A stretch of DNA of 63,662 nucleotides, counting the filler, from Reclinomonas americana ATCC 50394 (taxonomy: Eukaryota): the NCBI GenBank assembly GCA_048213135.1. It is 10 parts of 5 records of this genome, joined end to end, with 100 filler letters (N's around TTAATTAATTAA, not from the genome) between each part and the next. Parts side by side here need not be neighbours in the genome. Positions count along the whole stretch, not along the records: positions 14,389 to 23,719 come from PS015427.1; 9 more parts are not named here. The stretch is one strand, 5' to 3'. Numbering within the stretch: the first letter of the stretch is position 1; every line of letters begins with the position of its first letter. Position numbers and translations under genes: made by a program. This document shows positions 6,761 through 53,119 of the stretch, in pieces. The notes below the pieces were generated by a model. That model did no database searches, was not told where the DNA came from, and saw only the letters and a list, made by a program, of their open reading frames with translations.

Positions 6761-9330
6761 GTGTCGGTCGGAAAAATAGCGCGGGACATGACAACTCGCC
6801 GTGCACAACAGCACCTTTGTCGCTCTCTTATGGAAGCGAGCGCGCTCACTGTTGCGTACACACAAGCAGTGCAGCGCTGATTCTAAGTGGTCAGCTGCAC
6901 ATTGTCCTCTCTCATGATCTCGACGTCGCGGTACGTGCTTTCTCTGTACATGTACAACAGGCATTGCGATTCATTCATTGATTTTTCGTATTCATACAGT
7001 ACCGAGTGCGGCAGCAATAATTGATTCTGCACCGCAACCGCAGCGCTGCGTATCGCGCGCCACGTTGATTTTCACCACTTCGAGCTCGAAAACTCTTGAT
7101 ACTTGTTCCAGTCGGCGCTTGGCGGCGGTGCTGCTGCAGGTGGCGGAGGCGGTGGTGGTGGAGGCGGTGGTGGAGGTGGTGCTGCTGAAGCATAATTGAC
7201 GGGCGCACCAGGACCGCCGGCAGCCATGAAGCCGGGGACAGCCGGCATCAGTGTGGCGATGATGAGGAAGGCGCCAATGGTGGGATCCTCGGGGCACGCG
7301 ATGCGAGTGCCGACGCTAGACAACTGCACAAACTCGGATGGCGGCATCGATGGCACCGGCAGGTGGGCTTCTCCTGACGCGTACGGGGAGCGAGCGCGCC
7401 ACGGCTCGGAGGCTGTATTCAGGGGAAGGGATGAGAAAAGATTCACAGCGAGGGAGAGAGAGAAACATGAACAGGGAAAAGAAGGGAGGCAGTCCTGGTT
7501 CACATGTGCAAGATATCCATGGGAGCATGAGGAAGATAGGGTGCAAGAGGAAACGGGACAGTAGGAGAGGATTTGGAAGGTGTGACGCGTAGATCTAGAG
7601 GACTGTACACGTGAAGCGCAAAGGTGTGAGTCAGTGGACGTGCAGACTCTCCAGAAGCGGGCATTAACAGAAGGGAGGAGAAAAGATCTTGAGTTGTCTC
7701 TGGTGTGTGATTTCGCAACTCAGAGCACACTTGACCGATCCCCCTCGGAACAGCATGTCGAGGGTGACGGCAACAGTGGACCAGCAGGGCACAAAACTCT
7801 CAAGCGCATACACGCTGCGTATGGAATGCAAGAGTGAGGGAGAGACAGGAGAGCGCAGTCGTATAAAGAGAAACGACGAAACTTGTGGAGATCCTCCAGC
7901 TTTTGTCCGTGGGCAGCCACCATGGTCTTCACCGCGTGCGACGCGTAGAGGACTGTGCACATGACGCAAAGGCGCGAGTCAGTGATATGCAATCTCTCAA
8001 TTGATTGGCAAGCGGCTGGCCAACGGAAGGGAGGAGAAAGTGAACAAGCTGAGTCGCAGTGTTCGAAGCAGCGTGTCACAGCAAGTCACTCCCGGCGAAG
8101 CGGAGGACGACGAGTTCAGAGGAAAACAGAAGGGGAAAGAAGAGATTAACTCCTAATTGGCATGCAGTGGGTGATCTCGCGCTCTCACTGCGCTTGGAAT
8201 ACCAAGAGTTTCGAATTCGAATGAGATGCTCGACAGCGACAGCTCGTGATGTGCGCTGTTCGACTTGCATGCACGCATCTCTGACCCCCAACCCCAAAAG
8301 AATCTGTGCTGTGTGCAGTGACTGGTGACAAGCTTGTACATGCTGCAAAAGAAGAAAAGAGGTGCCGAAAGGCTACTCAAATTTGCGAACGTGTCAGAGA
8401 TGACAACTTGTGACACGCTCTCTCAATACTCAAGTAATCTCCCTCTCTCTCCCAGACTCTCTCTCCTCCCTCCTTATATTGTGAATGCAACATCGCTATC
8501 GTTCGGTCACTGCACCCACTGCGCAGCGTTGCGCTGTGTCGACACACAAGTCACTCTGGACAAGCTGGTGAGCTCTCCCACTGCGCAATGTGTGGCGCAT
8601 ACAGCGCATAGAACCCTAGTATGGGGAGGAGGGAGGAGGAGGAGGAGGAGGAGGAGGAAGAGGAGAAGGTGCTGCAGGAGACCCCCAAGATCTCATCTTG
8701 ACTGGTGTCGCATCTCTCTCGTCTAACAAGGATTCATGGTCAAAGTGCTCCTCGCCTGTCACCCACGCACTCTAGCACTCTCCCCACATTCGTGCAGCTC
8801 GTGATGGCCGTGCAGAAAAGAGTGAGAGAACAAAGAGAAACGGACGGGAGGGAGAGGCCGCTGTAGGGAGAGTGAGAGAGAGAGAACGAGGGCAACAGGC
8901 ATGCAGACTCAGAGCCAGAGACAGAGAGAGAGAGAGAGAGAGTCTCGTTCCTCCCTCCCTCCCACCACCACTGCACCACTCACCTTTGCAGTCGGTGTCG
9001 ACCAGCAACACGATACCGGGAAACGTGGCGTAATTGGCCTCCAACATGGTAATCAGCGCCGGCACAAACATGCGGCTGCTACGAAGCCGGCGCGGAGACA
9101 TGACAAGTAGTGAGTCCACCGTGAACGGCACTCCCGACAACGACGACGCCGACGACGACGACACAATATGCGTGTTCGGTGTGCACGATCCGAACATGCC
9201 CGGAACAAACGATTGCTGCGGCACTGGCGGCGGTGGAGGGGGCGGTGGAGTCGGTGGTGGTGCAACGACCGTTGGAATGATCGAGAACAATGGTGGTGCA
9301 CAGCTCTCCCCAGCAAAGGTTGCCTGCAGG
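6761..9330 (-). CDS. Probable further upstream exons (putative ectodomain of the 7TM kinase, or a separate gene)
   Basis: GC-rich blocks bounded by plausible splice sites, e.g. VLYASHAVKTMVAAHGQKLEDLH, VYALESFVPCWSTVAVTLDMLFRGGSVKCAL, FVPALITMLEANYATFPGIVLLVDTDCK, with Cys and Pro/Thr-rich linkers. I could not build one continuous frame. Confidence 0.35.
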
Positions 9331-9621: not shown

Positions 9622-10514
9622 CTACTTTGTGCAGCTCTCTATATATTTCCCACTGATGCTGTCTGCACCATACTCTGCGCTGTCCTCTCTCCCTCTCACA
9701 CCCACGATTGCAAGCGAACATACCGGTTGGCGGCGACAATGTCGTTTTCTATGCGGGGGGCCGGCGTCCTCCTCGTGCACCTCTTCCTGCTTGCCATGTT
9801 GGTCGTCGTCGTCGCCACCACCATCGCCAATGGTGAGTCGAGTGCGCTTCAACAGTGCGCGTCTGTCCTCGCTCGCCACCTGCGCATGCATGCGCAATGG
9901 CAGCAGTGGAGGAGTGGTACCGGTGACATCGGCGAGGCGACTCGGCGGCTCAGCACCATGTGCGCGAATCCACCGACGCTCCTTGGCGCGACGGTTTTGG
10001 AACCAGATCGCCACCACCTTACTGTGGAGAGAGAGAGAGGGAAAGTGAGTGTCGATACGGAAAGATTCAACCTCTCGCACAGAGGAGTGCGCTACGGAGT
10101 GACGTGATCAAGACGCAACGAGGTGAGGTTGAGGTCGGCGGCTATGCGCGCCTTCTCTAGTGACGACGGGTACCGAGTGTGCGTGAAAAGGCACTCCAGT
10201 GCTTGCCTCTGTTTTGGTTTGTTTTTGCAGTGTGAGGGATACTTTTTTGGGAGGAAATCATCATGTCAATACGCGCGCACACACACACCTCTTGCTTGGT
10301 GAGTCGGCGTGAGGTCCACTCCTGCAGCAGCACGCGCATTCAGAGAACGTGTGTGGCACAGGGAGAGAGAGAGAGGAGATACCTGGACAAGCTTGTCGTC
10401 GTTGCCGTTCTCCTTCTCCCTCTGCTCCTCCTCGAGCTCCTCCTCCTCCTCCTCGGCCTCACAGTCATGGTACTCGCGCATGAGAGTGGGCGCATACGTC
10501 ATCGGGGCGTTCAT
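9622..10514 (-). CDS. Homeodomain transcription factor (non-TALE, Q50)
   Basis: Four exons splice to an acidic N-terminus plus EWTSRRLTKQE-RQALECLFTHTRYPSSLEEARIAADLNLTS-KVVAIWFQNRRAKERR, with the helix-3 WFQNRR signature. The 3' end is uncertain. Confidence 0.85.
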
Positions 10515-14288: not shown

Positions 14289-17022
14289 NNNNNNNNNNNN
14301 NNNNNNNNNNNNNNNNNNNNNNNNNNNNNNNNTTAATTAATTAANNNNNNNNNNNNNNNNNNNNNNNNNNNNNNNNNNNNNNNNNNNNAGAGAGAGAGAG
14401 AGAGGCGAGGTACAGCTTGTCGTGCTGCTGCTGAGGGTCAGGCTGCGGCGAATAGGTGCGCGTGAATGCAGAAGCTTCGATACAACTATCTGTGCGATTT
14501 TACGCATATCCTGCTGGTCATCAATAGAGAGAGAGGGAGGGAGAGAGAGAGAAGCGAGGCTTGTGTGTGCTGTTGCGTTTGATCAGGCTCCGATGGTGCT
14601 CAAGAGAAAGGGTGTGCATGAATGCAGAGGCTGTTGTTTTGATTGTCATACTGTGCTATTTTCTCGAGTACGACAGAGTGGTGCATGTGAGAAGCGCGTT
14701 GTTTTTCGCAAGTTGATGGAGAGAGAGGGAGGAGGAGAGAAAGACGCAAGATTGAGTGTGGTGCAGCTTGCCGTGTTGCTGTTGAGGGTCAGGCAGCGGC
14801 GAAGGGTGCATGAATGCAGACGCTTCGATACAACTATCTGTGCGATTTACGCATATCCTGCTGGTCATCAATAGAGAGAGAGAGAGAGAGAGAGGAGGAG
14901 AGAGAGTAGTGACGTAGGTNNNNNNNNNNNNNNNNNNNNNNNNNNNNNNNNNNNNNNNNNNNNNNNNNNNNNNNNNNNNNNNNNNNNNNNNNNNNNNNNN
15001 NNNNNNNNNNNNNNNNNNNNNNNNNNNNNNNNNNNNNNNNNNNNNNNNNNNNNNNNNNNNNNNNNNNNNNNNNNNNNNNNNNNNNNNNNNNNNNNNNNNN
15101 NNNNNNNNNNNNNNNNNNNNNNNNNNNNNNNNNNNNNNNNNNNNNNNNNNNNNNNNNNNNNNNNNNNNNAGAGAGAGAGAGAGAGAGAGAGAGGGGAGAG
15201 AGAGATGCAAGGTGTAGCTTGTTGTGCTGCTGCTGAGGATCAGGCTGCGGCGAATAGGTGCGCGTGAATGCAGAAGCTTGTCGATATCTTGCTGTATTTC
15301 AGCCGGGTTTCGTGTAGTTGTCATAATACTTATTGTTGAGGAGAGAGCTCATCAATTCTTTTCTCCTTGTCTCAGGACTTCCTCCACCCCCGCATGCGCG
15401 ACTTTATCGCCGGCAAGATCACGCTCGACGAACTGTCCAGCGACACGGGTATTCCGCGCATCCGCTGCATGCCAGTGTTCACCGAGGAGTTTGAAGAGTT
15501 GCGCTCACCATTCCCGTGCTGCTGCTCCTGTCAGATCCTCACTCACCCTGCTCACTGCACAGGAAGCTGTTGGTGGAGGTGGAGCGATTCGAGCAGCAGG
15601 TCGACGAGAGGTGTCGGCCGAATTCCATGAACAATGTTGCGTGACTGCGAGGCAAGCGAGCAGATTCAGGCAGAGTGAGCGCGCAACCGCTTACCCTTTG
15701 TTGACATGCAGGAGGGCACCGTCATGTCAGAGCTCGGCATGACCGCATTCTTCGACGCATTTGTGGAGCACTGTGCGCGTCCCATCGGCGCTCTCTTGTA
15801 CGCGGATCGCGGAGGCGCCACTCTCAACACCCAGCATTCGTTCACGGTGAAATGTTGCGTCGCCGAGTTCTCTCAGCGACGGTTCTCTCTTGCTCCTGCA
15901 CGCTCTCTCTCTCTCTCTCTCTCTGTCTGCCTGTCTGTCTCGTGTCTCTGTTTCTCTCTCTGTCTATCTCTCTCCTCCTTCTCTGTTTCTTCTCTTCTCA
16001 CTCTCTCTTGCATGTACATACACGTGCAATATCTGTCGCTCGATCCCTGTCTGCGTGCTACTCTTCCTTTCTCGCGTGCGCTATCTTTTTTTTCTTTCTT
16101 TCTTTCTCGTGGCCTTCCTGTGTCTCTCCTTCCCTCTCTCTTCCTTTTCTCACTGTCTCTCTGCACGCATGCGCGTGGAGTATCTCTCGCTGGATCCCGA
16201 TTTGCGTGCAACTCTTCCTGTCTCGCGTGTACAGTGTCTTTCTCTCTTGTCTCTCTATCTTTCTCTTTCTCATTACTCAGTCTCTAGCACTCTGTCTCTC
16301 TCAGTCTCTCTTGCTCTCTTTCTCTCTGCGTCTCTCTATCTCACACCCACAAATACAGTTCTCCCACTGCCTGCGTGCCGTCTTCCTTTCTTCCCCCTCT
16401 CCCTCCCCCCTCTCCCCCTCTCCCTCACTCTCCCTCACTCTCCCTCACTCTCTCACCCTCTCCCTTTTTCTCACTCACCTCTCAACCTCACTTTCCCTGT
16501 TTTCCGCAGACCGCCCGCAAGGCGACGTCGACCTCGACTTCCACACCGACGACAGCGAGGTCACCTTCAACGTGTGCCTGTCGCACGAATTCACCGGTGG
16601 CAATCTGTACTTTCGTGGCATTCGTGACGACCCGGCGGAGACCGGCGAGGAGTACGCCGAGTGGGCGCACCAGCCGGGAGTGGGCATTGTTGCGTTCCGA
16701 GAGCTACCGGCGTGTCGGTGTCCTCCGCTTTTTGCTTAACCCCCCGCAGGTGCACCTGGGAGCGCACAGACACGGCGCGCTGCCGATTCGCAGCGGCACG
16801 CGTGTGAATCTAATCGTGTGGTGCCGCTCGCAAGACCACCGCGTGCACGCGCTGCTGGACGTGTGGAACCAGCAGGCAGAGGTGCGCGCCGCCGGCACGT
16901 TCCCGTCGCCCGATGAGGACTCGCCCGGGGTGTGTCCGCATTGCGCCCGCCAGCATCCACCAGGCGATCACGATCGTGCCGCCGATGAGGACGGTGGTGG
17001 TGGACCGTATCCGCATGATTAA
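13244..17022 (+). CDS. 2-oxoglutarate/Fe(II)-dependent dioxygenase, OGFOD2/ICU11-like
   Basis: Seven exons join in frame: RPNSMNN, HSFTVKY, DLDFHTDDSEVTFNVCL (HxD), FTGGNLYF, HLGAHRHGA (distal His), GTRVNLIVW (Arg); TAA at 17020-17022. Confidence 0.88.
14120..15290. repeat. Intronic repeat units separated by (GA)n
   Basis: GTGCTGCTGCTGAGGRTCAGGCTGCGGCGAATAGGTGCGCGTGAATGCAGAAGCTT at ~14140, ~14420 and ~15225, with diverged copies at ~14580 and ~14775. Confidence 0.8.
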
Positions 17023-17050: not shown

Positions 17051-20000
17051 TTACTCTCCATCTCTGCTGCTGCGCCCCACCAGCGGCGACACCACCACTC
17101 GATCGGCTCCGCGGCCGACCACGCGAGTGGCGGGCGAGAGGCGGAACGGAATGCAGTTGGAGAAGTAGGGAAAGTCGAAGGAGGTGCGCTGGCCGGCGGA
17201 GACGTTGGGGACCGGCATGAGTCTGCGGGAGGGGGGGGGGGGGGGGGGAGGGAGAGGAGGAGGGGAGGGGAAGAGGGGAAGGGGATTGAGTACAAAGGAG
17301 AGCGAGGAAATGTAGTGAACAGAGAGCAGAAGGAGAGATAGACGAAGTGAAGGGGAGTTTCGCAAGAGTTTTGCAAGCTATGGAGGATCGCATTTAGTCT
17401 CTGCACCCACACGAGGGGGAAGGGTGGATACGGGGGAAGCGGAAGGGAGTGAAAAGAAAGGAGAAAGGGATACAGGGTGAGGGAAAGGGGATTGTGTACA
17501 AGGGAGAGATAGAGATAGAGAGAGAATAACGAAGAGCGAGGAAAGGGAGGGAACAGAGAGCAGAAGGAAAGTACGGACGAAGTGAAAGGGGATTCGCAAA
17601 GAATGGAGGATCGCTTTTAGTCTCTGCCCCGACAAGAGAGGGAGCTGCAAAGGCAGCATCCACAGCACTAATGAATCGTTGCAAGTGTCTACAGAGGCGA
17701 GAGAGAGAAGGAACTTCAAAGTCAGTGATGAGAGCATTGATGATTTTTTGCACGCCTGTGTGGGAAAGAGAGAGAGAGAGACAAATGAAGAGCAAGGAAA
17801 GAGTGAACACAGAGCACAAGAGAAGTAAGAAAGTGCAAGAGAGTGCACGACAAGTGAGAGTGAGTTGATCAATACAACAGAAGAGAGAAGAAGAAAGCGG
17901 GAAAGACGGGAAGAGCGAGAAAGGTAGAGGGGGAGGAGACATGCGAACGAGAAAATTAGCACTGTGATGATCGGGATAGATGCGAGTTGGCGATGAGAAA
18001 GTGATGGGCACAAGAGAAAGAGATTATCGGATTGTTTTCTCTTGTTAGAGAGAGAAGAGAGAAGGATAATGAATCGTGAGCCAATACGACTGAAGAAGAA
18101 CGACTGAGCAAGGAGCACGTAGAAGAGAGACGGAAGGGCGGAATGCGGGACGTAGTGAGAAATAATTGCACTGTACTGAGAAGGACAAGTGGGCGAGGCA
18201 AGAAAGAGAGCAAGGATGATTACACCTTCGAAAGCCTCTTATCAGGTGTGAGACATGCAAGAGAGCAGCGCAGGGCAGTTTCGCAAGCCCTGGAGGATTG
18301 GGTTTTGTCTCTGTACCCACATGAGGGGGAAGGGTGTATACGGGGGAAGCGGAAGGGAGTGAAAAGAAAGGAGAAAGGGGTACAGGGCGAGGAGAGGGGG
18401 TGGAGGAGGGAAAAGGGAATGAGTACAAGGGAGAGAGAAAATAACGAAGAGCTAGGGGAGAGAGTGAACGAAGTGAACGGCGAGTTTCGCAAGGTATGGA
18501 GGATTGGTTTCGAGGGAGCTGCAAAGGCAGCATCAACAGCATTGATAATTTGTTGCAAGTGTCTACAGAGGCGAGAAAAGAGAAAGAGGGAACTGCAAGG
18601 GCAGTATCAACAGCATTGATGAATCGATGCAAATCTCTGCAGAAGAGAGAAACCGCGCTTCTGCCGACCTATGGTTGCCCTTTCCCTCTCCATACCTGGC
18701 CGTCAACTGCTTGTTCAAGCGCAGCGACAGCGCCGCCACATCGTGCATCACCCCCGCAATCGCCTCCGCCGTCGAGTCCCACAAAATCGGCACAGTGTCC
18801 AGCCTGCACCAACATGAGAACGACGTAATCCCTGCTGTGTGCACCTGAGCCACACTCACCCGGTTGCGCACACTGCGCTGAACGACAGCAGCTCGGCCAC
18901 CGTGTACCGCGACTCATCAGCACGCTGGCACAAAATGTTATCCTCCAGCACCGGCAGCATGACGCCGTTGAAGCCCGTGTGCAGGAAGTTCGCTCTACAC
19001 ACGGTTCACGATGACATATCCGTCACGATCATGCTACAACCACGCTCACACTACTCACCGCTCCAACACCGACGTGAGCAGGGCCACTGCCGAGAGCGTG
19101 CCTGGGTCGCCAAAATGCTCCACTCCCATGCACTCAATGCCGCCACCGATCGAGTCCCTTTGTTGCGGGAAGGGTGCAAATGAAAAGTCGAAGCCCTGCA
19201 TTCACGAGAAATTGAGATGACTCCTGTATACAACAGGCATAAGGGTGCTCACCTTGAATGTCAGGCCAAACTCCCTGGCGATTTCGTCGACTGCCGGCTG
19301 TAGCACGGTCGCGTGCTGCTCGATGAGTGCCTGCAGCTTGGCGGCGCCGTCGTCCAGCGATGCAGCGTCGGTGAAGGCCTCGGAGACTGTGGTAGGTAAA
19401 GGTGAGCACGTGGGGGAAAAAGGAAGGGAGGTAACGAGAGGCGCACCGAGGTTGGCGCATTGCAGCGCAATGGCAAAGCAGTCGCCGTCGCTGTTGTTGC
19501 CCGAGTGGAACGAGCCGGGGAAGAAGGGGTTCTGCGGAGGGAGATAAGGAGAAGGGAGAAGAAGGGAAAGGGGAAGGGAGAAGGGGACAGGGGAAGGCAG
19601 GGGATAGGAGTGAGGGGAGAAAAGAAAGGAATGAGGTGGAAACAGGGAGAGGAGGAAGGGGACGGGGGAAACGAGGGAGGAGCTTCAAGAGGAGTACACA
19701 TGAACAGGGTAACAACAGAATGGATGGGCAGAGGAGAATGGGCGAGAGGATGAATGAGAAGAAAAGAAGAAAGAGCGACTGATTTGAGGAGAATGGGCGA
19801 CAGGCTGGACATGAAAACAGAAGAAGAGAAGGATAGGAGAGAGTTCGGAGGAGAATAAGAGGGCGACGAAGTGACCGAGGCAGGGGGATAGTGAGATGTG
19901 CCAGCAAGGCGAGAACGAAACAAGGGTCACACAAGAGATGTGCAATTGATTAAACAGTACACATGAGCACAGGGACTGACTAGGCACTGAAAGTAAGAAA

Positions 20001-20878
20001 GAACTGGACAGTCACTCAAAAAATAAATGAAAAAGAGAGAAGAAAAGGAAAGGGGAAAACGAATGCGTTAAATATGTCCCAATAGCGCTCAAAAGCTTGA
20101 GAAATGCGAGCGTGGGAAAAATTGCAAGTGTCACTCAGAAGTAAACAGACAAAGAGTGTATCTGAAGACAACAAATGCCTTGAGTCTGTCCTCTAACAGC
20201 GTGGAAACACGCTGGCCAACACTCTGACACCTCGAGAAAGGTGAAAGAAAGAGAGAAACGTCAAGAAAATGCGCAAACTTTCTCTTTGTCACGCACGCAG
20301 CAGATTCTCAGCATCACGCAACAAAGGGCCGCACTTGCGCCAGTGCCGAGAAACGCAAGTTGCCAAAACCGCCCGAGGCGTGCTCCGAGTCCAGTTCGGC
20401 GATGCGACGCACCGCAGCTGCGGCTTGTTGCACGCAGTCACCGTGAACTCTGTGGAATTCGATTCAGGCATCGACACAGACGGAGCGACACAAGGGTAGT
20501 GCGCGAAACTTGTCATCGGCGGTGAGTTGCGCACACACAAAGCATGACGAGGTCTGCACAAAGGAAGCCTTCGTGAGTGACGGGAACGAGGAGGAAGAGA
20601 GCTGGAACGGCGGACCTCTCGAATAATGTCGCTGACAAACTCGTACGAGCGCGGACAGTGAGACAGCGCGGCGCCCAAGCCGATGCATTGGAAGCCGATG
20701 GCTGCGGATAAAAAGGGAATGAGAAATAAGGAAAGAGGGAGTAGAAGCGGCGACACGCACCTTTGAAGCGCGCCTCCACGTCCGTCACCAGCGCCAGCAC
20801 GCGCTTGCGGGCGTCGTCCAACTCGCCCGACTCGGTGTCCACCAGGAGTGGAAAGTGTGATGTGGAGAAGCGCACGGT
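17051..20878 (-). CDS. DUF711 (UPF0210) family protein; first exon not located
   Basis: Spliced motifs: NLRFSALAQVRPF-NPFFPGSFH, FAIALQCANL, GFDFSFAPFP, FGDPGTLSAVALLT, GFNGVMLPVLED, FSAVCAT-GLDTVPI, DVAALSLRLNKQLTAR-LMPVP..FDFPYFSN; TAA at 17051. Confidence 0.85.
17340..18660. repeat. Composite repeat filling the last DUF711 intron
   Basis: Two copies of GAGGGGGAAGGGTG..TACGGGGGAAGCGGAAGGGAGTGAAAAGAAAGGAGAAAGGG (~17410, ~18320) and several GCAGCATC..CAGCA.TRATGAATCG.TGCAAGTGTCTACAGAGGCGAGA units. Confidence 0.75.
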
Positions 20879-22087: not shown

Positions 22088-24624
22088 ATGGCATGCTCTC
22101 CTCTTATTGTTCTTGCTTTCGCTTATCTGGTTCTCTTCCCTCTTTATTTTCTCTTTTCCTACTTCCCCGACCCCTTCTCCGCCCTCTCCTTCCCTTTATC
22201 TCCTTCGCTTCCATCCCATTGACTCCCTTCCCCCCTCACCCTCCCACCCTCCTCCTCACCCTCCCCCGCCCCGCAGGTCACCGCTCAAGACCAATTCGTG
22301 ATCACCGACGAGGCCAAGACGCTGCTGCACTCGTTGCGCGATGAGCGCCTCGCTGTCATTTGTGTCGCCGGTCTGGCGCGCACGGGCAAGAGTTTCCTGC
22401 TGAATCAGCTGCTGTGCCGGTGCGTGAGCCGTTTGTTGAAGGCGTACTGTCTGGTCTCCTCACTCCGCCCCGCCGCAGTCAACGTGGTTTCGAGGTCGGC
22501 AACACGGTCATTGCGTGCACCAAGGGCCTGTGGGTGTGGAATGAGCCAGTGCGATACACGGTGAGTTTGGCATGGGGGAAAGGGTGGGAGAGAGGGAGAG
22601 AGGAGAGGATGGGAGAGAAGAGGAGAGGGAGAGAGAGATACCGCGTGTGAGTGAGAGCGAGCGTGTATGTATGTGAAGATATGTGTGTGAGTGCGAGTAT
22701 ACGTGGATGGGCGTGAAAATGACGTGTTTGAGTGGATCGGTGTATGCATGTGTGCGTGAGAGAGATGGAGGAAGCGATGTTTCTTGCGAGTTCATATGTG
22801 TGTATGAAAATGGCTCAAGTGAGTGTATCGGTTTCTGTGTGTGTGAGAGAGATACTGCGTGTGAGTGAGTGCGAGAGTGGATCGGTGTATGCAGTGTGTG
22901 TGTGATAAATATCTTGAGTGGTTCGATGTGTGCGTGAGAGAGAGAGAGAGAGAGAAAGAGAGGCAGCGATGTTGCTTGCGAGAGCATGTATGTGAAAAAT
23001 GGCATGAGTAAGTGGATTGCTGTGAGCTTGTGTGTGAGAGAGAGAGAGATACTGCGTGTGAGTGAGTGCGAGAGTGTATACGTGTGTGCGCGTGATAAAT
23101 ATCTTGAATGAGTGGATCGGTGTGTGCGTGAGAGAGAGAGAGGGAGCGATGTTTCTTGCGTGTATGTGTGAAAAAATGGCTTGAGTGAGTGTATCGGTAT
23201 GTGCTTGTGTGCGTGTGAGTGAGTGCGAGAATGTATACGTGTGTGCCCGTGACAATAACTCGATTGATGTGGATCGGTGTGTACGTGAGAGAGAGAGAGA
23301 GAGGGAGCGATGTTTCTTGCGTGCATTTGTGTGAAATAATGACTTGAAGTGAGTTAATCAGTGTGTGCGTGTGTATGTGTGTGTGTGAGAGAGAGAGGGA
23401 GGGAGCGATGTTATTTTCGAGAGCATGTATGTTTGAAAAATGACTTGAGTGAGTGTATCGGTGAGAATGTGCGCGTGTGTATGGGAGAGTGCGAATGAAT
23501 GCAAGAGTTCGCGGGGGGGGTGGGTGTGGCGTGTTGTGAATGTGTGTAACAACAAACATTCGCTTCGAGAGTGTGTGCTTTAGATGACGAGAGTGGGCGT
23601 GTACGTGCCCTTATTCTTTCCTTTCCATTCCCTTCCCCCTTTTTGCGCAGACCGACACTGGCGAGAAATTCAGCGTACTTGTGATGGACACGGAAGGCCT
23701 GGGTTCGATCGAGGCCGGCNNNNNNNNNNNNNNNNNNNNNNNNNNNNNNNNNNNNNNNNNNNNTTAATTAATTAANNNNNNNNNNNNNNNNNNNNNNNNN
23801 NNNNNNNNNNNNNNNNNNNTTGCACACGTAGCGGTCAAGGGTTAAGGGTGGAGAGACAGCAATGGCTCTCTCGTCATTTCTCGCAGCACTCCTGTCATTC
23901 ACCCAAACGCACCTTTTCACCTTTCTTTGCCAAACCTCCCTTTGCCTCTCGTTACCTCTCTTCTCATCGTTCTCCCCTTTCGCAGAATGGCCTGGCCCTC
24001 CGCCCGGAGCGCACCTCCATGGACCGCGAGCGCAACGAGATTCGCCGCTCGATTACGACCCTGTTCCCACGCCGCAACTGCTTCTGCATGGTGCTGCCGA
24101 CGGCCGATGAGCGGACGCTGAACAATTTGTCGGCGGCCAAGGAGCGCGACTTGCGCCCCGAGTTCTTGCAGTCGGTGTGTCACAGTATCATGTCCCTGTC
24201 AAGCACCTTTCTTTTCGGTTCCTCACTCTCCTCCTTCACCCCAACAGATGAACGACCTCAAGAAGCTCGTGTGGCGCATCACTCGCCCGATGCGACAGCG
24301 CTCGCGCGACGTGACCGGTGAGACGTACCTGCGTCTGGCACAGTGCTTTGTCGAGGCGGTCAACAGTGGTGGTTTGCCGAGCATTCGACCGAGCTGGAAT
24401 GCCATTGTGTTGGTATGCTGGCGCGCGACAATTTGGCGACGAGTCGGTGTGACTCATGCCTCTTGCGTAGGTTCACAACAACGAAAAGTGCGAGGCCGTG
24501 ATTCAGGAGTATCGGCGACGGATTCAGGCGCTCTACGACCCGGATGCGTCGCTGGAGAGCTTCTCGGCCGCGTGTGAAGTGTGAGTTCGCGGTGGCAGAA
24601 GGCGGATAGTGATTGGGGAAGACT

Positions 24625-25525: not shown

Positions 25526-28500
25526 AAGAGAGAGAGAGACTGAGAGGACTTGGAGACTTAGAGGTTGAGAGAGACTGAAAGAGACTGAAGGAGATTGAGA
25601 GAGCGTGGCAGAAGGAAGATTTGTTCCGTACAAGGAGAGTTCCCTGGTCACAGGGATAAGGGTCAAGCGGCAGGACAAGGGTCAGGGGTCAAGGGTTATG
25701 GGTCAGAGAACCGACAGAGATCAAAGGAGGGGTGGATGTGTGTGTTCTTTGCCGTCGACTCCACCTTCGACAAACTGGTTTTACTATTTTCGTTTGCTCT
25801 CCACTCTTCCCCCCGTATCGCGTTCTGTTGTCTTTCTGTTTCTCTTCTGCACCTCTGTGCTGTGCTCAGTTTCTCGTCTTCACCATAGACTCCTCTTGTC
25901 GACAAGCTGGTTTAACTATTTCGTTTGCTCTCCACTCTTCCCCCATCTTCTTTTCGTGATCTCCTGTATCTCTACTGTGCTCTTTACCATAGACTCCTCA
26001 TTTCGACAAACTGGTTTAACAATTTCGTTTGCTCTCCACTCTTCCCCCCGTTTCGCGTTCTGTTTTGCATGTGTTTCTCTCCATTATCTCCTGCAACTCT
26101 GCTGTGCTCAATTTCTCATCTCTCGTCTCCGACGTGATCCTTGTTGAGGTCCAACGCGCTTTTATTACGCTCGTCGTCTCAGAATCGAGGTTCCTTTCTC
26201 AGCCTCATCTCTCAACTCGTTTTGCAGGCTGCGTGTCGAGGCCCTCGGCGTGTTCCATCAACGAGCCCTCAGCGACGACATTCAGCAGTACTTAGAGCGT
26301 CTCACAGTTGCGGCAACGAGTTTTGTCTATTGTGACGATGCTGATGGCTAATGCTCTTTTGCAGAACGAGTTGAACATTACTCGCGACTCGCTGGCGCGT
26401 CAGTTGGAGCTGGAGATCTCGGAGCGATTCATGCGGCATGCGGATGATCTGGTGTCGGATATTGAGCGGGAGAAGTGCGAGTCGTTTGGTGATTTGGTGC
26501 GGGCCGTGAATGTCAGGATGGAAGGTATGTGATGGGAAGGGTGGAAGGGGGAAGGGTGGAAGAGGGGGAAGGGGGAAGGGATAGAGGCGGGAGGGGAAGG
26601 GAGAGAGGGGCGAAGTGAGAGATGGAGCAGTAGATTGTAGATGTTTGCGTGGGTGAAGTAAGGAGAGGAGGGAGAAGGGTGGAAAGGAGAGAGAGAGATT
26701 GGGGAATGAACAAGGGTGTGTGTGGAGATGGACAAGCGAGATGAGAAGCAGAATATATGAAAGGTCGCAGGGGTGAAGAAAGGAGAAGTGGAAGGGGAGG
26801 TTAGTCAGGAAAAGGGAGATGGGACAGAGACGGAACGGTGGGGTGAGAGGGGAGGCAGATGACGAGGAGAAGGAGGGCGAGGCAGCGAGAATGCTATATT
26901 GGAGAAGGCTCAAAGGGATGGGAGATGATGAGGGGCACGGTGAGAGGAACAGTCGAGGGTCTTGTAAATTGTGAAGATAGGCCAGTTGTCAGTCACTTCT
27001 CGTTCTTGTTGGATTCTGTTTGCGGTTGTCGTTCTTCGCCACAATTCCTGTTTATTTCACCCAGTGCTTGTGATTTCCGACGTTGCCTCATTGCCCGTTT
27101 CCTTTCCCCCTTCCCTCCTAGAATTCTACAACCAACACGGCGAGCAACGTGCCTTCCAGCTGCGAAGCGCTCACATCTTCTCGCGCGTGCTGCGTGTGAT
27201 GCTGAGTGGAGCTGAGCGTCTGGAGGATGCGCGAACGCGAGCGGAGCAGGTGTGGCACCTGCTGTAGCTCTATGTTGTGTGTGCTCTTCTTTTGTATTGA
27301 TGATTGGGCAGGCCATGGAGCGCGAGCTGTCGGATGCGCAGTTGACTGTTGAAGATATGCAGCGTCGACTGGAGGTGTCGCAGGTAGGGGAGGGGGCGGA
27401 AGGGGAGGGGGCGGAAGGGGAGGGGGCGGAAGGGGAGGGGGCGGAAGGGGAAGGGGAAGGGGCAGAAGGGGAAGGGTGAGAGGGAGGCAAGGGGAGAGAG
27501 TAAGAGAACGAGATTGAGAGAAGAAATGTTCCTGTCATTCGGAGTGGTCGACGACAGTGCGGTCGACTGTACTGAGTCAATAGGCTGCTGAAGATAGGAA
27601 GTGGGGGATTGAGGCAAAGAGAGCTTGTTTCTTTCGAGCGGACGATCGAGAGATGAGATTTCGCACGTACCAAGTGTAGAGAGAGTTGTACCTGTGAGAT
27701 ATTGATAGATCGATTCCGCAAGCACGCACTCGCTTACACACACCAACGAGAAGAAGAGTGTATGTGTGAGAGAGAGAAAGAGAGAAAGTGGCAGATGTGC
27801 ATTGACAAGGTCAGGCAGGGAAAGAGAAAGCGATATATATTAACAGGCTTGACACGTGCCGGCGCCCGCGCATACTGACGAGCAGACAGAGAGAGATAGC
27901 GGAACTGAATGAGTGACAGAATTTCCACACTCAGACACACGGGAAGAGGTCAAGGAGAGATAGAGAGAAGTAGAGAAAGTTGCAGATGTGCATCGACAAG
28001 TTCTGGATGGAAAAGAAAAGCGAGAAATATTACAAGGCTTGACACTTGCCGGCACCCGCGCACTGACGAGCAGACAGAAAGAGAGTTAGCAGAACTGAAT
28101 GAGTAACAGTATTTCCACTCGGACACACGGGGAGAGGTCAAGGAGATAGAGTGTGTGTGTGTGAGAGAGAGAGAGAGAAATGTAAGGGAGAGCACGCCGC
28201 ACTTGACACGCACAGGCACCCACGCACACAAAAGAGAGGTGAAAAAGAGATTGAGGAAGAGAGAGTGCATCAGTGTCCGCGATTGAGAGACTGAGCAATT
28301 GCGTGACAGCATTTCCACGCACTCGTACAGGGTCATTTGTTTAGAGACGATGCTGTCAAACACCATGAGCTTGGAGCCCCTTGTGATTCTCACTCGCCCT
28401 CCTCCCTCCACAGCAAGAAATCGAGGCACTGCGTCAGGAGGCGCAGGACTTTGCCGACACGGAGGGCAGCATGCAGCGGGAGTTGCAGCGATTGCGCTCA

Positions 28501-31339
28501 CAGGCGTCGGTTTGTTTGCGCGTCCTTCTTGGTAATTGCAGCTCCTCCCACTCATCTTTTTGCTCCACAGGCTGGAGACAGTGAATTGGGTGTCCTGCAA
28601 GCCGACTATCATCGCCTGGAGCAGCAGTACCAGGAGCTGGAGGTTTGCTGCTCTGTGTTGAGATAGGTGTTGCGAGTCGTGGCTCATGTTCGTGACATTT
28701 GCAGCGTGCCTCGCGTGCGCAAGTCGACCAGAGCCGGACCAGCGAGTCGCGATACGAGGATCGCTTGCATCGTGTGCAACGTGACGCGTCGGAGAAGGTG
28801 ATTTGTATGCAACCAAGGTTAATCCCTCACAGCTCCTGATCTCCGCCTCGCTGGTACAGATCGACCAGTTGACGCAGCAGATTGCCATGTACGAGGAGGA
28901 GATTGCGGTCGGTCGCGCGCACAGGCGTTGATGTTCCGCTGTATGAATTTCACTCATTCTTTGGTGATAGGGTCTTCGCAACTCGTGCGCAGAGCTGGAG
29001 TCGCAGCTGTTGGAGCAGGGTGGTCGCGGGTCGGCTGCTGCTGGTAGCGGTGGAGATGCGGACTATTGGCGCGAGAGGTACGAGCGGTTGTTGGAGGATT
29101 ACAACATTCTGGCGGATGAGAGTACGGTGAGTGTGGGGAGTGGGAGAGGATGTTGGGAGGAGCGAGGGAGGGAGGGCGGAGGGAGAGAGGGGGAGGAAGG
29201 GTGCAATGGGAGGGTGACTGATGTGGGAGACGTGTGTGTGTGTGTGCAGGCTGCGGATCAGGTGGTGGCGCAGGTGGCGTTGGAGGTGAGATGGGGGAAG
29301 AGAGGGGGAAAAGAGGGGAAGGGAGGAGCGAGGAGAGAGAGAAGAGGGGAGGAGTGCCGAATGAAGAGCGATGATGATGAAGAGGAAAAGATAAGAGAGA
29401 CATGGTGAAAGGCAGGGGAGAAGAGAGGAAGGAGTGAAGAAACTGACAAGAGAGACGAATCGCGAAGGATGAGACATGGGAGGGAGGGGAAGGGTGAATG
29501 TGTATTTGTGTTAAGAGAGGCGAAGATGAGAGAGGAGAGGGGGAAAGAGCTGCAAAATATGTGCGAATGGGTGAGGATAGGAGAGAGGAATGAATGAGCG
29601 GGTGACAAGGGAGAGGAGTGTTGGAGGATGAGACATGGAAGGGAGGGGAAGGGTGAATGTGTATTTGTGTTAAGAGAGACGAAGATGAGAGAGGAGAGGG
29701 GGAAGGAGCTGCGAAATCTGTGCAAATGGGTGAGGATAGGAGAGAGGAAGGAGTGAGCGGGTGACAAGGGAGAGGAGTGTTGGAGGATGAGACATGGAAG
29801 GGAGGGGAAGGGTGAATGTGTATGTGTGTGAAGAGAGACGAAGATGAGAGAGGAGAGGGGGAAGGAGCTGCGAAATCTGTGCAAATGGGTGAGGATAGGA
29901 GAGAGGAAGGAGTGAGCGGGTGATAAGGGAGAGGAGTGTGAAAAGGGAGAATGAGAGACATGTTGAGAGGAAGGAAACTTGATCCGTCCCAAAACCATCA
30001 GCTTGTGCTCCCAATCTCATCTCTCGTATTATCCTTGCGCAGCGCCGACAAGAGGACAGCGAAGTTGCGCATGATTCCCTCTTTGTAACCCTTCTCGTCC
30101 TCCTTTCTCACTCTCCTCTCCCACCGCAGATGCAGGAGGTCGACGACTCGACGCCGCGCAAGAGCGCCGCTGCCGCACGTGGCACGCCGTCGAGCTCACG
30201 CCGGCGTGGGCGGCAGAGCGAGGTCGACATGGACGGCATCAATCAGTTCATTGCGTCGACTGTGAAGGTGCGGCTCCACGTGCGACTGTTCTTCTGCAGT
30301 TGTCTGTCGCACTGAGCGTGTGTATTGTGAGCAGAAGGAGAAGGGCACGCCGAAGCGTGCTCCCGAGGACGAGGGAGCTGGTCAGCCAGCTTCGAAGCGT
30401 CGTGTGGTGCGTGGCAGTTGCACTCGCGGTTCTCTGTTGCAGTGACTCACTCGCCGATTCGCAGTCGATTGGTGAACCGTTGAAGGATTCGGGTAGCTTG
30501 TCGGTGCCGTTCCTGAAGAACTTCCTGTCGGAGAACTTCCCCACCGAGTATGCCAGTGCGGGGTGAGTGTCGTTTGTGTGCGCGAGGGTGAGCAGGATTC
30601 TGAAGAAAATGTGCGTGCAGTGGCAGCAAGATGACCAAGCCCAAGTTGGTGGAGTTGTACGATCGGTTGAATGGTGGTGGTGGTGACGATGAGGATGGTG
30701 GGGAGGATGACGAGGTGATGGAGCGGGCGCCGGTGAGTGGGGGGGAGAAGGGCAAAGGGGGTAGACGGGGAAAGGAGGGAAGGGGTTGAAGGAGAAGGGA
30801 GAAGGGGGGAGGGGTAAAGGAGAAGGGAGAGAATGTGAGTAGTGGAGGTCGCGTACTGTTAGTTGATTTGTGCGACAGGGAAAACATGATATTGTATGGT
30901 TTGAGTGCAGCACACAGGCGGCGAGAGGATGGGGAGGATGTGAGCACGTACAGTAGTGCGCTGTGATATTAGTGAGATTGATCTTGCTGCATTTCCTAAC
31001 TTATTGTGATATGCTGCAGGTCTCGCAGCGCAGCGCCTCATCCTCGGCCGCCGCCCCGTCCGGGAGCGGTCTGCCTGACCCCGAGTCGCTGACGGCACCG
31101 TTCATGAAGAACCACTTGTCGGAGCAGTTGCGTGTGCAATCATCTTGGTTGTGCCTGATCTGGTGGGAGCTCATTGGGTGCTTTGCATCACAGCTTCCCG
31201 GTCGAGTTCGAGAAGGCCAACGGCCGTGCCATGAAGAAGCAGGCATTGGTCACCCTGGTGAGCAGCTGTGTGTTTGCATGTATGTTTTGTCGGTCGCTGA
31301 CTGGATGTGCCGTTGCAGTGGAAGCGACTGTACAAGTGA
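22088..31339 (+). CDS. Guanylate-binding protein (GBP/atlastin-family GTPase) with long coiled coil and two C-terminal HeH/LEM-like repeats
   Basis: G1 GLARTGKSFLLN, GFEVGNTVIACTKGLWVW, G3 MDTEGLG, RNEIRRSITTLFPRRNCF, LRPEF, FVEAVNSGGLP; heptad-rich exons at 26230-30060; TGA at 31337-31339. Exons are lost in the gap at 23720-23819 and the start codon is tentative. Confidence 0.9.
22640..23480. repeat. Intronic tandem repeat (~190-200 bp unit) in GBP
   Basis: Recurrent GTGGATCGGTGT, AGCGATGTTTCTTGCG, GAGTGAGTGTATCGGT and GATACTGCGTGTGAGTGAGTGCGAGA. Confidence 0.8.
25765..26125. repeat. Intronic tandem repeat (~120 bp unit, 3 copies)
   Basis: CGACAARCTGGTTT..CGTTTGCTCTCCACTCTTCCCCC occurs three times. 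Confidence 0.8.
29465..29940. repeat. Near-identical intronic tandem repeat (~160 bp unit, 3 copies)
   Basis: GGATGAGACATGGRAGGGAGGGGAAGGGTGAATGTGTAT...AATGGGTGAGGATAGGAGAGAGGAA at ~29467, ~29626 and ~29785. Confidence 0.9.
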
Positions 31340-32516: not shown

Positions 32517-33163
32517 ATGCGCGCCTTCGCCGCCCTCCTCTTGCTCCTCAGCATTGTCGCTGCCGCTCATGCCGCCGACACCATGACGCTCGTCAAGCTC
32601 ACACAGGCTGCACAGGTGCGATGAGGCAAAGACGAAGAGAGAGAAAGAGAGTGAAAGGAGGTGAAAGGAGGTGAAGAGAGGAAGGAAGAGCAGAGGAGAG
32701 AGGGAGAGAGTGCGCGTGTTTGTGATGCAAGTGAGCTGTCTGAAATGCGGAGATTCGAGAGTGCGTGTGTGTGTCTCGTTTCTCTCAAGTGTTCTCGCGC
32801 TCTCTCGTCTTTTCATGCCTGTGCGTGTTTGTGTTTGCTGGGTGTGTACGCAGCTTTTGTGCGTGTTTGTGTGCGAGAATGCGTGTGCATTTCAATTTTT
32901 CCGCATGCGGTTTGCATTCCCCCCACTCTCTCACCCTCGCTCTCAGTCTCTCAGTCTCGCGCCTCTCTCTCTCTCTCTCTNNNNNNNNNNNNNNNNNNNN
33001 NNNNNNNNNNNNNNNNNNNNNNNNTTAATTAATTAANNNNNNNNNNNNNNNNNNNNNNNNNNNNNNNNNNNNNNNNNNNNTCTCTCTCTCTCTCTCTCTC
33101 TACTCTCTCTCTCGTCGTCTCGTCTCTCGTCGTCGTCTCTCTCTTCTCTCTCTCTCTCTCTCG

Positions 33164-33221: not shown

Positions 33222-36200
33222 GTCTCTCAGTCTCGCGCCTCTCTCTCTCTCTCTCTCTCACTCTCTCTCTCGTGCGCTCTTGTCGCTCTCATTCACCCCC
33301 TTCCGCCTCATCAGTGTCGTCTCACGCTCATTTTCTCTCCCGTTTGCTCTTTCGCTCTCTCAGTGTCTCTCCGCATGCACCCTCTCTCTCTCGTTCACTC
33401 CCACGCTGTCGTCTCACACGCTCGCTTGCTCGCCCTTGTGCTCTTTCGCTCTCTCAGTCTCTCCCCCCTCTCTCTCCCCTCTCTCTCTGTCGCCTCCTCA
33501 CATCCTCACACGCACTCTCTCTTTTTCCACTTCCCCCGTCCTCTCCTCCCCTCTTTCTCACACTCCCTCTTCCCATCTTCCCATCTCCTTTCTCTCACTC
33601 CCTCTCTCTCTTCTCCTCCTCTCTCTTCCCATCTTCCTCTGTCTCCCCTCCCCCTCTCTCTTCCCTTTCCCTCTCCCTCACCCACTTCCTTCCCATGAAT
33701 GCAGTCGCGTGGAGCCGTGTGCCTGGACGGATCGCCGGGAGGGTAAGTCATGCCAACTCCCGCCTTGACGCAGTCTCGCCATGACGAGTCTGCTCTTCGC
33801 AGATACTACTTCCGCCAGGGTGCCTCCGACAAGTTTGTTATCAACTTCCAAGGTGCGTGACTGAAAGCGCGAGGGTGTTATTTTCTTCTCGCTCCCATCT
33901 CTCTCCACTCGCAGGCGGCGGCTGGTGCTACAACGAGCGCGAGTGCCTCGATCGCTCCAAGACCAACCTCGGTTCCACCAACAATCTGTTGCGTCCGCGT
34001 CTCTACCTCGCTCGCTTTGCGCACCGCGCCTCTCATTCCCTCGTTCGCAGGCCCGCCACCATCGGTGCCCCGTCGGCGGCGTGCTCGAGCGAGTTGCGTT
34101 GCACCAACTGCCGGTCTCGATGATGCAGTGACTGACTGGCAGTGTCATGCAGCACGAATGTCAATCCCGATTTCCATGATTTCACGGTGCGCACTGCTCC
34201 CTGTCTCTGATTGTTTTCTGCTTGGGCGTATCACCGCCGTCTTGCTTGCTCTGTTTTGAGCTTTCTCTATCTCCTCTCGACTGCTTTTGCTTGTTTTTAC
34301 CTGAGATGCTCTCTCTCTCTCACACTCTCTCTCACTCTCTCTCTTTTCTCTCTCTCTCTCTCACACGTACATACACCCACACACACAGACGCATCTTCCA
34401 TTTGTGTCTTTTGTGTCTATATAGCTCCTTCTATCCCCTCCCTTTCCCTTTTTCTCGCCATCTATCTCGTATCTCTCTCGCTCTCCATCTCTTCTCCTAA
34501 TCTCCCTCTTTCTCTTTGCGTGTCGCTCTCTCTCTCTTCTTGTTCTCAGTCACCTTGTGTCTTCTTTCTCTCTGTCATTCTATCCCTCTTTCTCTCCCAT
34601 ACTCTTGCACATCCCGCATCTCTTCCTTGTCCGTCTCACCCGTTCTCCTTTCTCTTGTGTCTCTTTCAGTCTTCTTCTCCCTCATTTATCTTCTCTTCCC
34701 CGTCCCCTTTCCCTCCCTCCCTCTCTCCCCCTCACTCTCCCTTCCTCCTCCATTCCTCTTCGCAGATGGTGTTCGTGCCCTACTGCGACGGCGCCAGCTA
34801 CTCGGGCGACAACGCTTCCCCGTCCAACGTCGGCGGTACCAACATTTACTTCCGCGGCGGCCGCATTCTCACCGGTGCGCAGCTACACACTTTCTCTGTC
34901 GCTCTCCTTCACGCACTGCTGACTTGCTGCCACAGCCATTCTCGACGACCTGGTGTCGAAGCACGGATTCAGCGGCGCTCGCCAGGTGCTGGTCACTGGC
35001 GGCAGCGGTGAGTGGGAAGCGCTGGCGTGAGATGATCACGGTGTTGACGAATGCTTGTGTGGCGGTGGTTACAGCTGGCGGTTTGGCGGCGTACCTGCAC
35101 GTGGATTACATTGCCTCGCGCGCCTCGGCGTCGGCCGTGGTCAAGAGTGCGCCGGATGGGTGAGTGGGAGAAAGGGGAGGGTAGAGAGCATGCACAAGAG
35201 AGAGAGAGAGAGTGCGAGGAAGGGAAGTAAGAACGCGGTCGGCGTGTGTGACGAGAAGGAGAGTGAGAAGGGGAGGGGTATAGAAAGAGAAGATCGGCCC
35301 TTGTCTTTGAGTCCTCGCTCCTTTCGGCGCTCACTTGGTGCGTGCATTGTTACATCTGAGCTGGAAAAAATGGAGAGAGGAAAGAGCAATGCGTGACCCC
35401 GAACAGGTCTGTCTTCTTTCAGCGCTCTCTTGTTGGTGCATTTTTTCGCCTGCGTCGGGAAGAGATTGAGATTGAGAATGAGAAGGACAAACCCTTTCCT
35501 TCGAGTTATCGCCTCTTTCAGACTTAATTGTTGACTGCGTGTTGCACTTGGATGGGGAAAGAAAATAGCATGGCCTTTGCAGCTTTTGTAAGTGGACGAG
35601 AGATGAAAAAAAGAGAAGAACAACCGTCGCCTTTCTCTCGCTCTCACCTGTTGACTGCATTCTTGCACCTGGATGGGAAAGAGACGGAGAAAGGGAAGTG
35701 CGATGCCAGACCCCGAATATGTCTGTCTTCTTTCAGCGCTCTCTTGTTTCGCCTGCGTCGGGAAGAGATTGAGAATGAGAAGAACAAACCCTTTCCTTCG
35801 GGTTATCGCCTCTTTCAACGGTCACTTGTTCACTGCGTTTTGCACCTGGATGGGAAAGAGAATAGCAATGCATGGTCTTTTGCAGCTCTTGTGAGTGGAC
35901 GAGAGATGGAAAAAAGAGAAGAACAACCGTCTCTCTTTTCTCTCGCGCTCACCTGTTGACTGCATTCTTGCACCTGGGTGGGAAAGAGATTGGGAATGTG
36001 AATAGCAATGCACAGCCTTTGCAGCTCTTGTGAGTGGGGAAGAGATAGAGAGAGAAGAACAACCGTCGCCTTTCTCTCGCGCTCACTTGTTTTACTGCGT
36101 TTTGCACCTGTATGGGAAAGAGAATAACAATGCATGGTCTTTGCAGATTTTGTGAGTGGGGAAGAGATGGAAAAAGAGAAGAGCAACCGCTGCTCTCGCG

Positions 36201-45850: not shown

Positions 45851-46072
45851 GTTGCGTGCCACCTGCAATGCATTTTCTGGCAGTGCGTAGGNNNNNNNNN
45901 NNNNNNNNNNNNNNNNNNNNNNNNNNNNNNNNNNNTTAATTAATTAANNNNNNNNNNNNNNNNNNNNNNNNNNNNNNNNNNNNNNNNNNNNCTGTGCGTG
46001 AGAGAGAGAGAGAGAAAAGGTGAGCACCACCTGTTGTCGACAGCAGAGGAGAGACATGTGCGCTGGAACTGA

Positions 46073-52845: not shown

Positions 52846-53119
52846 GAGCGTACGCAGCACGTCAATTACGGGATGGTCAAGATGTCGACAATCGCAGAAT
52901 GAAGGAGATGGTTAGAGGAGAAGAAGAGAGGGAGAGAAGAAGAGAGGAGAAGAGAGGAGAAGAGAAGAAGAGAAGGGCTATAAANNNNNNNNNNNNNNNN
53001 NNNNNNNNNNNNNNNNNNNNNNNNNNNNTTAATTAATTAANNNNNNNNNNNNNNNNNNNNNNNNNNNNNNNNNNNNNNNNNNNNGAGCTGACGAGATTCT
53101 TTCACTCTCTTACACGCAG

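Follow-up and report, generated by a model that had tools for sequence, protein, structure and literature searches.

An abundant GTTGCG donor class linked to the last exon base in a 63-kb window of the Reclinomonas americana genome

We analyzed the introns in a window of 63,662 nucleotides (nt) from the draft genome of Reclinomonas americana ATCC 50394, focusing on the 5' splice sites (donors) that begin with GTTGCG. The window includes genes of a protein kinase, a homeobox protein, an axonemal dynein heavy chain and an oxygenase, and the last of these carries four of the donors (Table 1). Its earlier exons are lost in the gap at 14920–15169; the five oxygenase exons present join into a single open frame of 789 nt. 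The spliced product was aligned to 12 full-length homologs, and all four junctions, three of which lie within highly conserved blocks, were free of gaps; this confirms the original prediction that four consecutive introns of the gene use GTTGCG donors. Each of the four has a pyrimidine-rich tail followed by CAG. Exon 4 alone matched 426 proteins at E ≤ 1e-3 in a representative library; exon 5, used as a query against longer proteins, gave no match.

Introns across the window were cataloged with a purpose-built gene finder that combines three-periodic Markov coding scores with explicit GT...AG introns. The finder was initially trained on Pfam-matched stretches and retrained on its own output, and both strands were run and the better one kept. 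Because circularity was to be avoided, donor scoring was restricted to intron bases +1 to +9, and exon bases were never scored. For the donors, a mixture of two components was fitted to unlabeled sites and by itself split them into a GTG[A/C/T]GT and a GTTGCGT class, with respective weights of 0.66/0.34 and 0.64/0.36 in two fits. The output comprised 31 gene pieces and 76 introns; removing two wrong introns and adding five fitted by homology gave the final catalog of 79, drawn from the sequence of this one 63-kb window with gene models built from coding scores and homology. Added by hand were oxygenase intron 2, two homeobox-gene introns, which give a complete homeodomain, and two introns of a pectinacetylesterase-family gene, which give in-frame reading through conserved family motifs. 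Three GTTGCG donors beside short exons had been overlooked by the two-class finder. An alternative frame of the pectinacetylesterase-family gene, closer to the family motif, was rejected, as GT–AG introns cannot join it to either neighboring exon. In the dynein gene, 11 of the 11 junctions tested were without gap, and so, with the oxygenase, were all 15 junctions checked against homologs.

GTTGCG occurs at 57 sites on the two strands of the window, compared with 36.9 ± 6.3 in shuffled sequences, and 0 of 100 shuffles reached 57. It forms the donor of 18 of the 79 cataloged introns (~23%), and a 19th supported donor, at 52119, lies outside the catalog and outside the statistics on the 18. Ten of the 19 are supported by homolog alignment or Pfam coordinates and nine by the gene finder only, the weakest among the latter being those at 41288 and 41401. 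The last exon base (position −1) before the 19 donors was A in 8, T in 8, C in 3 and never G; for the 18 cataloged donors, the counts were A 8, T 8, C 2 and G 0. Among the donors of the ordinary form GT[AG]NG, on the other hand, G preceded 39 of 44, and the difference from the 0/18 of the GTTGCG donors was highly significant (Fisher test, P = 1.8e-11). When only junctions fixed by homology were counted, G was found at −1 of 0/10 GTTGCG donors and of 12/12 other donors (P = 1.5e-6). With a flat donor score, in which only the GT is known, GTTGCG was still the top hexamer (12 of 81 introns, 0 after G), and 30 of 38 GTRNG donors had G at −1. As the flat-score run shows the same split, neither the class nor the association is a product of motif training.

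The original prediction had linked the −1 base to the donor class, with GTTGCG following exon ends other than G and ordinary donors mostly following G, and the 79 introns bear this out. Its single exception, the candidate site at 45851, meets a gap after 40 nt. The rule is one-way, as had been proposed, since a base other than G precedes 5 of the 44 ordinary donors, such as t/GTGCGT at 2633 (minus strand). Set against background, the GTTGCG donors stand out far less than they do against ordinary donors: within exons, 28% of GT positions have a G before them, against which 0/18 gives a binomial P of 0.003, and G stood at −1 of 6 of the 37 GTTGCG sites unsupported as donors, some of which lie in stretches without a reliable gene model, versus 0 of 19 (Fisher test, P = 0.09). 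We conclude that the ordinary (major) spliceosome uses GTTGCGT as a real and abundant class of donor, linked to the base at −1.

Apart from their first seven bases, the GTTGCG introns are ordinary introns. The two kinds are intermixed in the same genes and have similar median lengths (70.5 nt for GTTGCG vs. 69.5 nt), acceptor scores (6.5 vs. 6.4) and pre-acceptor pyrimidine contents (0.66 vs. 0.68); both end mostly in CGCAG, TGCAG or CACAG, and branch-like motifs are common to both. The internal similarity among 16 GTTGCG introns was not above that among ordinary ones (means 1.19 vs. 1.15, 99th percentiles 3.4 vs. 3.27). As they share no internal sequence and have the same lengths and acceptors, the GTTGCG introns are neither a repeat family nor introns of the minor spliceosome. 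Introns of the U12 type have an RTATCCTT donor, a TCCTTAAC branch site near the acceptor and no pyrimidine tract, and their long, near-invariant donor motif comes with no exonic G preference. The GTTGCG donor resembles theirs in being long, near-invariant and free of an exonic G, but it is not RTATCCTT, and the branch-like motifs, pyrimidine tracts and acceptor scores are those of ordinary introns. An origin as introner-type, repeat-derived introns was rejected, as similarity along the intron was not raised among the 16 members. A pairing of the donor with a CGCAG acceptor end was also considered; this end is equally common in the two kinds (5/16 vs. 12/43).

The exon after a GTTGCG intron began with a purine in 15 of 18 cases, compared with 21 of 44 for ordinary introns (P = 0.012). 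The class thus looks distinctive on both of its exon sides, the purine bias being one of several features examined. A scan of metagenome contigs with a dynein exon found no relative, and a scan with an alignment found 80 loci of 48 to 59% identity. Rough spliced mapping gave only 26 possible introns, in 20 loci, several of them likely coding insertions and none with GTTGCG; these loci are too distant and too sparse to judge whether the class is shared.

Viewed as a string, GTTGCGT is a GTGCGT donor with one U added after the GU, used where the exon ends in a base other than G. The leading mechanism, to which we would give somewhat less than an even chance, is a displaced register in which the U1 small nuclear RNA (snRNA), and then U6, recognizes the GCGU core. 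In this non-canonical register, the 5' end of U1, and later U6, would read the core displaced by one nucleotide into the intron, and the intron +1 G would pair with the U1 cytosine that normally faces the exonic −1 G. Exons ending in G would retain the ordinary form because it binds U1 better. Insertion or deletion of a single T within the intron would interconvert GTGCGT and GTTGCGT with the reading frame untouched, and selection could therefore sort the two forms by the last exon base.

Precedents for such a register exist. Roca and Krainer 2009 (via Tan et al. 2016, PMC4856993) described shifted-register 5' splice sites, in which all base pairs with U1 are displaced by one nucleotide, the +1 G pairs where the −1 G normally does, and cleavage stays at the GU. 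According to Tan et al. 2016, experiments in human cells have established both shifted and bulged U1 registers, and all validated non-canonical registers together account for ~1.5% of human sites. That source prints ACA/GUCAAGUAUA as a model of a shifted-register site, in which the −1 base is likewise A. The differences are that these sites are a small minority in human and ~23% of introns here, that the GCGU core of GTTGCGT carries a conserved C that standard U1 cannot pair, that the shift leaves unaccounted for the U at −1 of about half of the GTTGCG sites, and that the GTTGCG energies are very weak.

We computed duplex energies with the textbook U1 5' end as printed in PMC4856993, taken as a stand-in for that of R. 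americana, and without pseudouridines or proteins. After G, the ordinary form was better by 3 kcal/mol (−8.2 kcal/mol for AAG/GUGCGU vs. −5.2 kcal/mol for AAG/GUUGCGU). For ACA/GUUGCGU, the +1-shifted register gave −3.5 kcal/mol and the canonical one +0.9 kcal/mol, whereas for AAU/GUUGCGU every register collapsed to one helix of four base pairs with −1.4 kcal/mol.

Several observations weigh against a displaced register read by standard U1. Pairing with GTTGCG is very weak, as the values of −1.4 (U-ended) and −3.5 kcal/mol (A-ended) indicate, and no better than that of the ordinary form at the same exon ends (−3.0 and −3.2 kcal/mol, respectively); exon ends other than G nevertheless carry GTTGCG rather than GT[AG]NG by 18 to 5, despite there being no gain in pairing. 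GTTGAG would pair far better (−7.9 kcal/mol) yet is rare: the +5 base was C in 18 and A in 1 of the GTTG[N]G donors, compared with C 15, A 15, T 5 and G 2 at the equivalent +4 of GTG[N]G (P = 1e-4). The skew, with C after GTTG in 18/19, persisted when that base was a wildcard in the gene finder (GTTGCG 15 vs. GTTGAG 1). An additional GTTGAG donor, at 51952, is placed by homology across a linker. The −1 base was A or T in 16/19 donors and never G, although G adds pairing in every register, and its composition (A 8, C 2, G 0, T 8) is unlike that of −2 in ordinary donors (A 19, C 13, G 7, T 5; permutation P = 0.008). The preference for A at −3 is unshifted, the A being found in 10/18 GTTGCG and 8/15 GTGCG donors. 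Finally, the T-inserted relative g/GTTACG at 50133 has G at −1.

Overall, the one-position shift of base preferences expected of a displaced motif was absent at −1, +5 and −3, and only the bases after the core agreed, with T at +7 in 14/18 GTTGCG and at +6 in 9/15 GTGCG donors, often followed by G. The original prediction of one GKTGCG motif cut in two registers thus stands for the GCGT(G) core lying one base deeper and for the non-G exon ends, but not for the base preferences, and the suggestion that the exon end is freed from constraint is contradicted by the A/T preference and by its difference from ordinary −2. The energies by register, put forward as a check, would explain why G-ended exons favor the ordinary form and predict A at +5 and G at −1, the opposite of what was observed. 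The three GTTTGT donors keep G at +5 and all have G at −1 (3/3), and T at +3 alone is therefore not tied to a non-G exon end. As a side observation, A was found at −3 of only 4/15 GTGAG donors, and GCG-type donors may share an exon-side signal.

Since standard U1 explains neither the fixed +5 C, nor the A or T at −1, nor the preference over an equally stable form, a dedicated reader is a rival account. The class would be recognized by a further trans-acting factor, in the simplest case a U1 variant with a 5' end complementary to GUUGCGU and otherwise a sequence-specific protein, and the likeness of GTTGCGT to GTGCGT would be partly coincidental. We consider this unlikely but worth taking seriously. 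A reader of its own would fit the near-fixed +5 C, as opposed to the even mix of A and C in ordinary donors, together with the T at +7; no G for that C exists in the 5' end of textbook U1, which reaches only the weak energies given above. It would also fit an exon end that has its own preference, for A or T at −1 and A at −3, instead of a relaxed one, and the favoring of GTTGCG at non-G ends. However, Rfam found no snRNA gene in the window and nothing there shows such a factor; acceptors, branch-like motifs, lengths and host genes are common to both kinds of intron; and the U1 5' end is, to our knowledge, almost invariant among eukaryotes. The corresponding broader claim, that the major spliceosome here follows two parallel donor codes, G/GTRNGT read by the usual U1 and W/GTTGCGT by a second, dedicated reader, is in our judgment rather improbable. 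If true, the second code would serve about a quarter of all introns and would free their exons from having to end in G.

Alternatively, U1 could pair with +1 and +2 as usual while the U at +3 or the C at +5 bulges out, an account that we regard as doubtful. Single-base bulges at +2/+3 and at +5 have been predicted for human sites, 68 and 535 of them, respectively (Table 3 of PMC4856993), and these registers and a contact between U and pseudouridine at +3/+4 are described by Roca et al. 2012 (via Tan et al. 2016, PMC4856993). GTTGCG resembles such sites in that the GU and the paired core are separated by an additional intron base, and U6 would in any case have to fit that base between the GU and the GCGU core. 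A bulge keeps −1 opposite the same U1 cytosine and therefore predicts G at −1, as in ordinary donors, with G-ended sites outbinding the A- and T-ended ones that are evidently in use (−5.2 vs. −1.4 kcal/mol). Instead, G was found in 0/19 compared with 39/44 ordinary donors and with the 28% background (P = 0.003). A plain bulge thus fares worse than the displaced register.

That the donor form was inherited and not selected, as the footprint of an insertion process with its own end sequence that targets sites of A or T followed by a purine, appears highly improbable. The flanks are indeed distinctive, with A or T before the intron in 16/19 and a purine after it in 15/18 cases, but the pairwise similarity, lengths and acceptors of the GTTGCG introns are as in ordinary ones, the cases inspected had no target-site duplication, and the host genes (kinase, homeobox and dynein) are old and conserved. 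We give almost no credence to an artifact of the gene models or to chance: 9/19 donors do come from a finder trained on the same window, the models were built from sequence alone and the window is made of contigs chained by artificial linkers, but the homology-fixed donors, the motif-blind run and the 15/15 gapless junctions all speak against it.

That donors without an exon-end G lean on the intron side is an established idea. Right-handed and left-handed 5' splice sites are regulated by LUC7 proteins (PMC11842720), and the conservation of GTTGCGT is, as in right-handed sites, entirely on the intron side; right-handed sites of human and plants fit the standard U1 consensus better on that side, however, and GTTGCGT does not. 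In GTTGCG donors it is the intron side that has the stronger consensus: bases +1 to +6 are set by how the class is defined (18 GTTGCG to 1 GTTGAG), T occupies +7 in 14/18, and −1 is never G. The exon-end G and intron positions +5 to +8 have been found to compensate for each other, intron-side signals being stronger where the −1 G is lost (PMC8283771), and GTTGCG similarly lacks the −1 G and leans on the intron. The pattern described there is a graded shift of base-pair frequencies within one consensus, in contrast to the discrete second motif with an extra base seen here. A full-text literature search for GTTGCG or GUUGCG found no such donor class among the matches listed, which were primers and unrelated sequences.

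Some further sites resemble the class. Donors of the forms GTTACG and GTTTCG look like GTACG and GTTCG with a T inserted. Six more GTTGCG sites preceded by A, T or C have a gap downstream or no reliable gene model, and some of them may be donors. Around two unrelated GTTGCG donors, at 20307–20325 (minus) and 43911–43926 (plus), 16 bases are identical, comprising three exon and the first 13 intron bases, and the outer flanks are unrelated. At the dynein donor 52119, the Pfam and BLAST matches stop exactly at the site, and the next contig starts with a good acceptor in the right phase.

The window is draft sequence in which we counted 30 runs of N. Nine identical 100-base spacers consist of 44 N, the twelve bases TTAATTAATTAA and 44 N, and TTAATTAATTAA places stop codons in all six frames. 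As these spacers are an artificial contig joiner, the order and orientation of the pieces are not guaranteed. The dynein gene illustrates this: two small contigs, 47573–48109 and 51384–51981, carry their segments on the plus strand and the other pieces, 46056–47472, 48620–51238 and 52076–52843, are on the minus strand, and as all five are colinear with one homolog, the two small contigs are mis-oriented in the scaffold. Gene content was obtained from a Pfam scan of 222 stop-to-stop reading frames (150 + 72). The dynein showed at most 56% identity among the matches listed, with one partial match of 61% over 73% of the query, and these matches included oomycetes, a cryptophyte, dinoflagellates, an apicomplexan and ochrophyte algae (brown algae and a pelagophyte). 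The closest library proteins to Rft1 were 33 to 36% identical. An Rfam search of the window gave no match at the gathering score, and thus no RNA gene; at E ≤ 1 on both strands it gave 16 weak matches, none to an snRNA and mostly to microRNA-family models around 42070–42170. Most of the sub-threshold microRNA-family matches came from the low-complexity, hairpin-prone stretch 42043–42299 and were taken as chance.

Table 1. Coordinates of the oxygenase exons and introns, GTTGCG and related donors, spacers and genes in the window. A slash marks the exon–intron junction, and the lowercase letter before it is the base at −1.
Feature	Position	Strand	Basis or remark
Oxygenase exon, preceded by acceptor	15376-15497	plus	open frame; aligns to 12 homologs
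Intron, 65 nt, donor a/GTTGCG, acceptor CACAG	15498-15562	plus	junction without gap vs. 12 homologs
Oxygenase exon, 73 nt	15563-15635	plus	open frame and homologs; donor overlooked by gene finder
Intron, 76 nt, donor t/GTTGCG	15636-15711	plus	junction without gap within conserved homolog block
Oxygenase exon	15712-15853	plus	open frame and homologs
Intron, 656 nt, CT-repeat-rich, donor t/GTTGCG	15854-16509	plus	gene finder and homologs
Oxygenase exon with HxD iron-binding motif	16510-16688	plus	426 library matches
Intron, 61 nt, donor t/GTTGCG	16689-16749	plus	gene finder and homologs
Last oxygenase exon, ends at stop codon	16750-17022	plus	open frame and homologs
t/GTTGCG donor, kinase gene	2405-2410	minus	flanking exons are Pkinase profile 75-116 and 120-176
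c/GTTGCG donor, homeobox gene	10114-10119	minus	splice to 10021 gives complete homeodomain with correct helix spacing
t/GTTGCG donor, DUF711-like gene	20317-20322	minus	gene finder; next exon weak Pfam match, E = 0.13
a/GTTGCG donor	26307-26312	plus	gene finder only
a/GTTGCG donor	30064-30069	plus	gene finder only
a/GTTGCG donor	31127-31132	plus	gene finder only
t/GTTGCG donor, pectinacetylesterase-family gene	33988-33993	plus	frame reaches family motifs only using donors 33988 and 34093
a/GTTGCG donor, pectinacetylesterase-family gene, intron 34093-34152	34093-34098	plus	hand-fitted, in frame with downstream motifs; overlooked by gene finder
t/GTTGCG donor, low confidence	41283-41288	minus	gene finder only; tiny exons, poor acceptor
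a/GTTGCG donor, low confidence	41396-41401	minus	gene finder only
t/GTTGCG donor	43914-43919	plus	gene finder; both sides score strongly as coding
c/GTTGCG donor	44970-44975	plus	gene finder
c/GTTGCG donor, dynein heavy chain, intron crosses assembly gap	52114-52119	minus	homology
a/GTTGCG donor, dynein heavy chain	52312-52317	minus	junction without gap vs. 2 homologs
a/GTTGCG donor	63104-63109	plus	gene finder; both sides score strongly as coding
g/GTTGCG, sole G-preceded candidate	45851-45856	plus	gap begins 40 nt downstream and hides any acceptor
a/GTTGAG donor, dynein gene, mis-oriented contig	51952-51957	plus	homolog residues 400 and 401 meet exactly there
a/GTTGAG donor, NUDIX gene	39122-39127	minus	gene finder only
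t/GTGCGT, ordinary donor after non-G exon end	2628-2633	minus	gene finder
g/GTTACG donor, extra T and CG at +5/+6	50128-50133	minus	homology
a/GTTACG donor, extra T and CG at +5/+6	62624-62629	plus	gene finder
a/GTTTCG donor, extra T and CG at +5/+6	37644-37649	plus	gene finder
Further GTTGCG sites after A, T or C	7714-7719, 42613-42618, 58700-58705	minus	
Further GTTGCG sites after A, T or C	6851-6856, 14572-14577, 44290-44295	plus	
Identical 100-base spacers, 1st-5th	14289-14388, 23720-23819, 32981-33080, 45892-45991, 47473-47572		
Identical 100-base spacers, 6th-9th	51284-51383, 52985-53084, 54674-54773, 61986-62085		
Protein kinase	845-2293	minus	Pfam scan
Homeobox gene	near 10000	minus	Pfam scan
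DUF711-like gene	18566-18913	minus	Pfam scan
GBP-type GTPase	22223-24318	plus	Pfam scan
Pectinacetylesterase-family gene	33785-37936	plus	Pfam scan
NUDIX gene	38981-39595	minus	Pfam scan
Axonemal dynein heavy chain, N-terminal third	45993-52843		Pfam scan
Rft1	53277-54671	plus	Pfam scan

The concept of a shifted register is known already; what would be new, if it extends genome-wide, is a donor class of the GTTGCG form that is both discrete and abundant. Non-canonical registers are a rare exception in human, whereas in this window about one intron in four appears to use a separate second donor motif that is one base longer. Gene predictors that use a single donor matrix will miss or misplace such introns. 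If genome-wide, the class would offer a natural system for studying how the cleavage site is set despite a displaced recognition helix, how such sites pass from U1 to U6, and how far coding sequence can escape the requirement for a G at the exon end.

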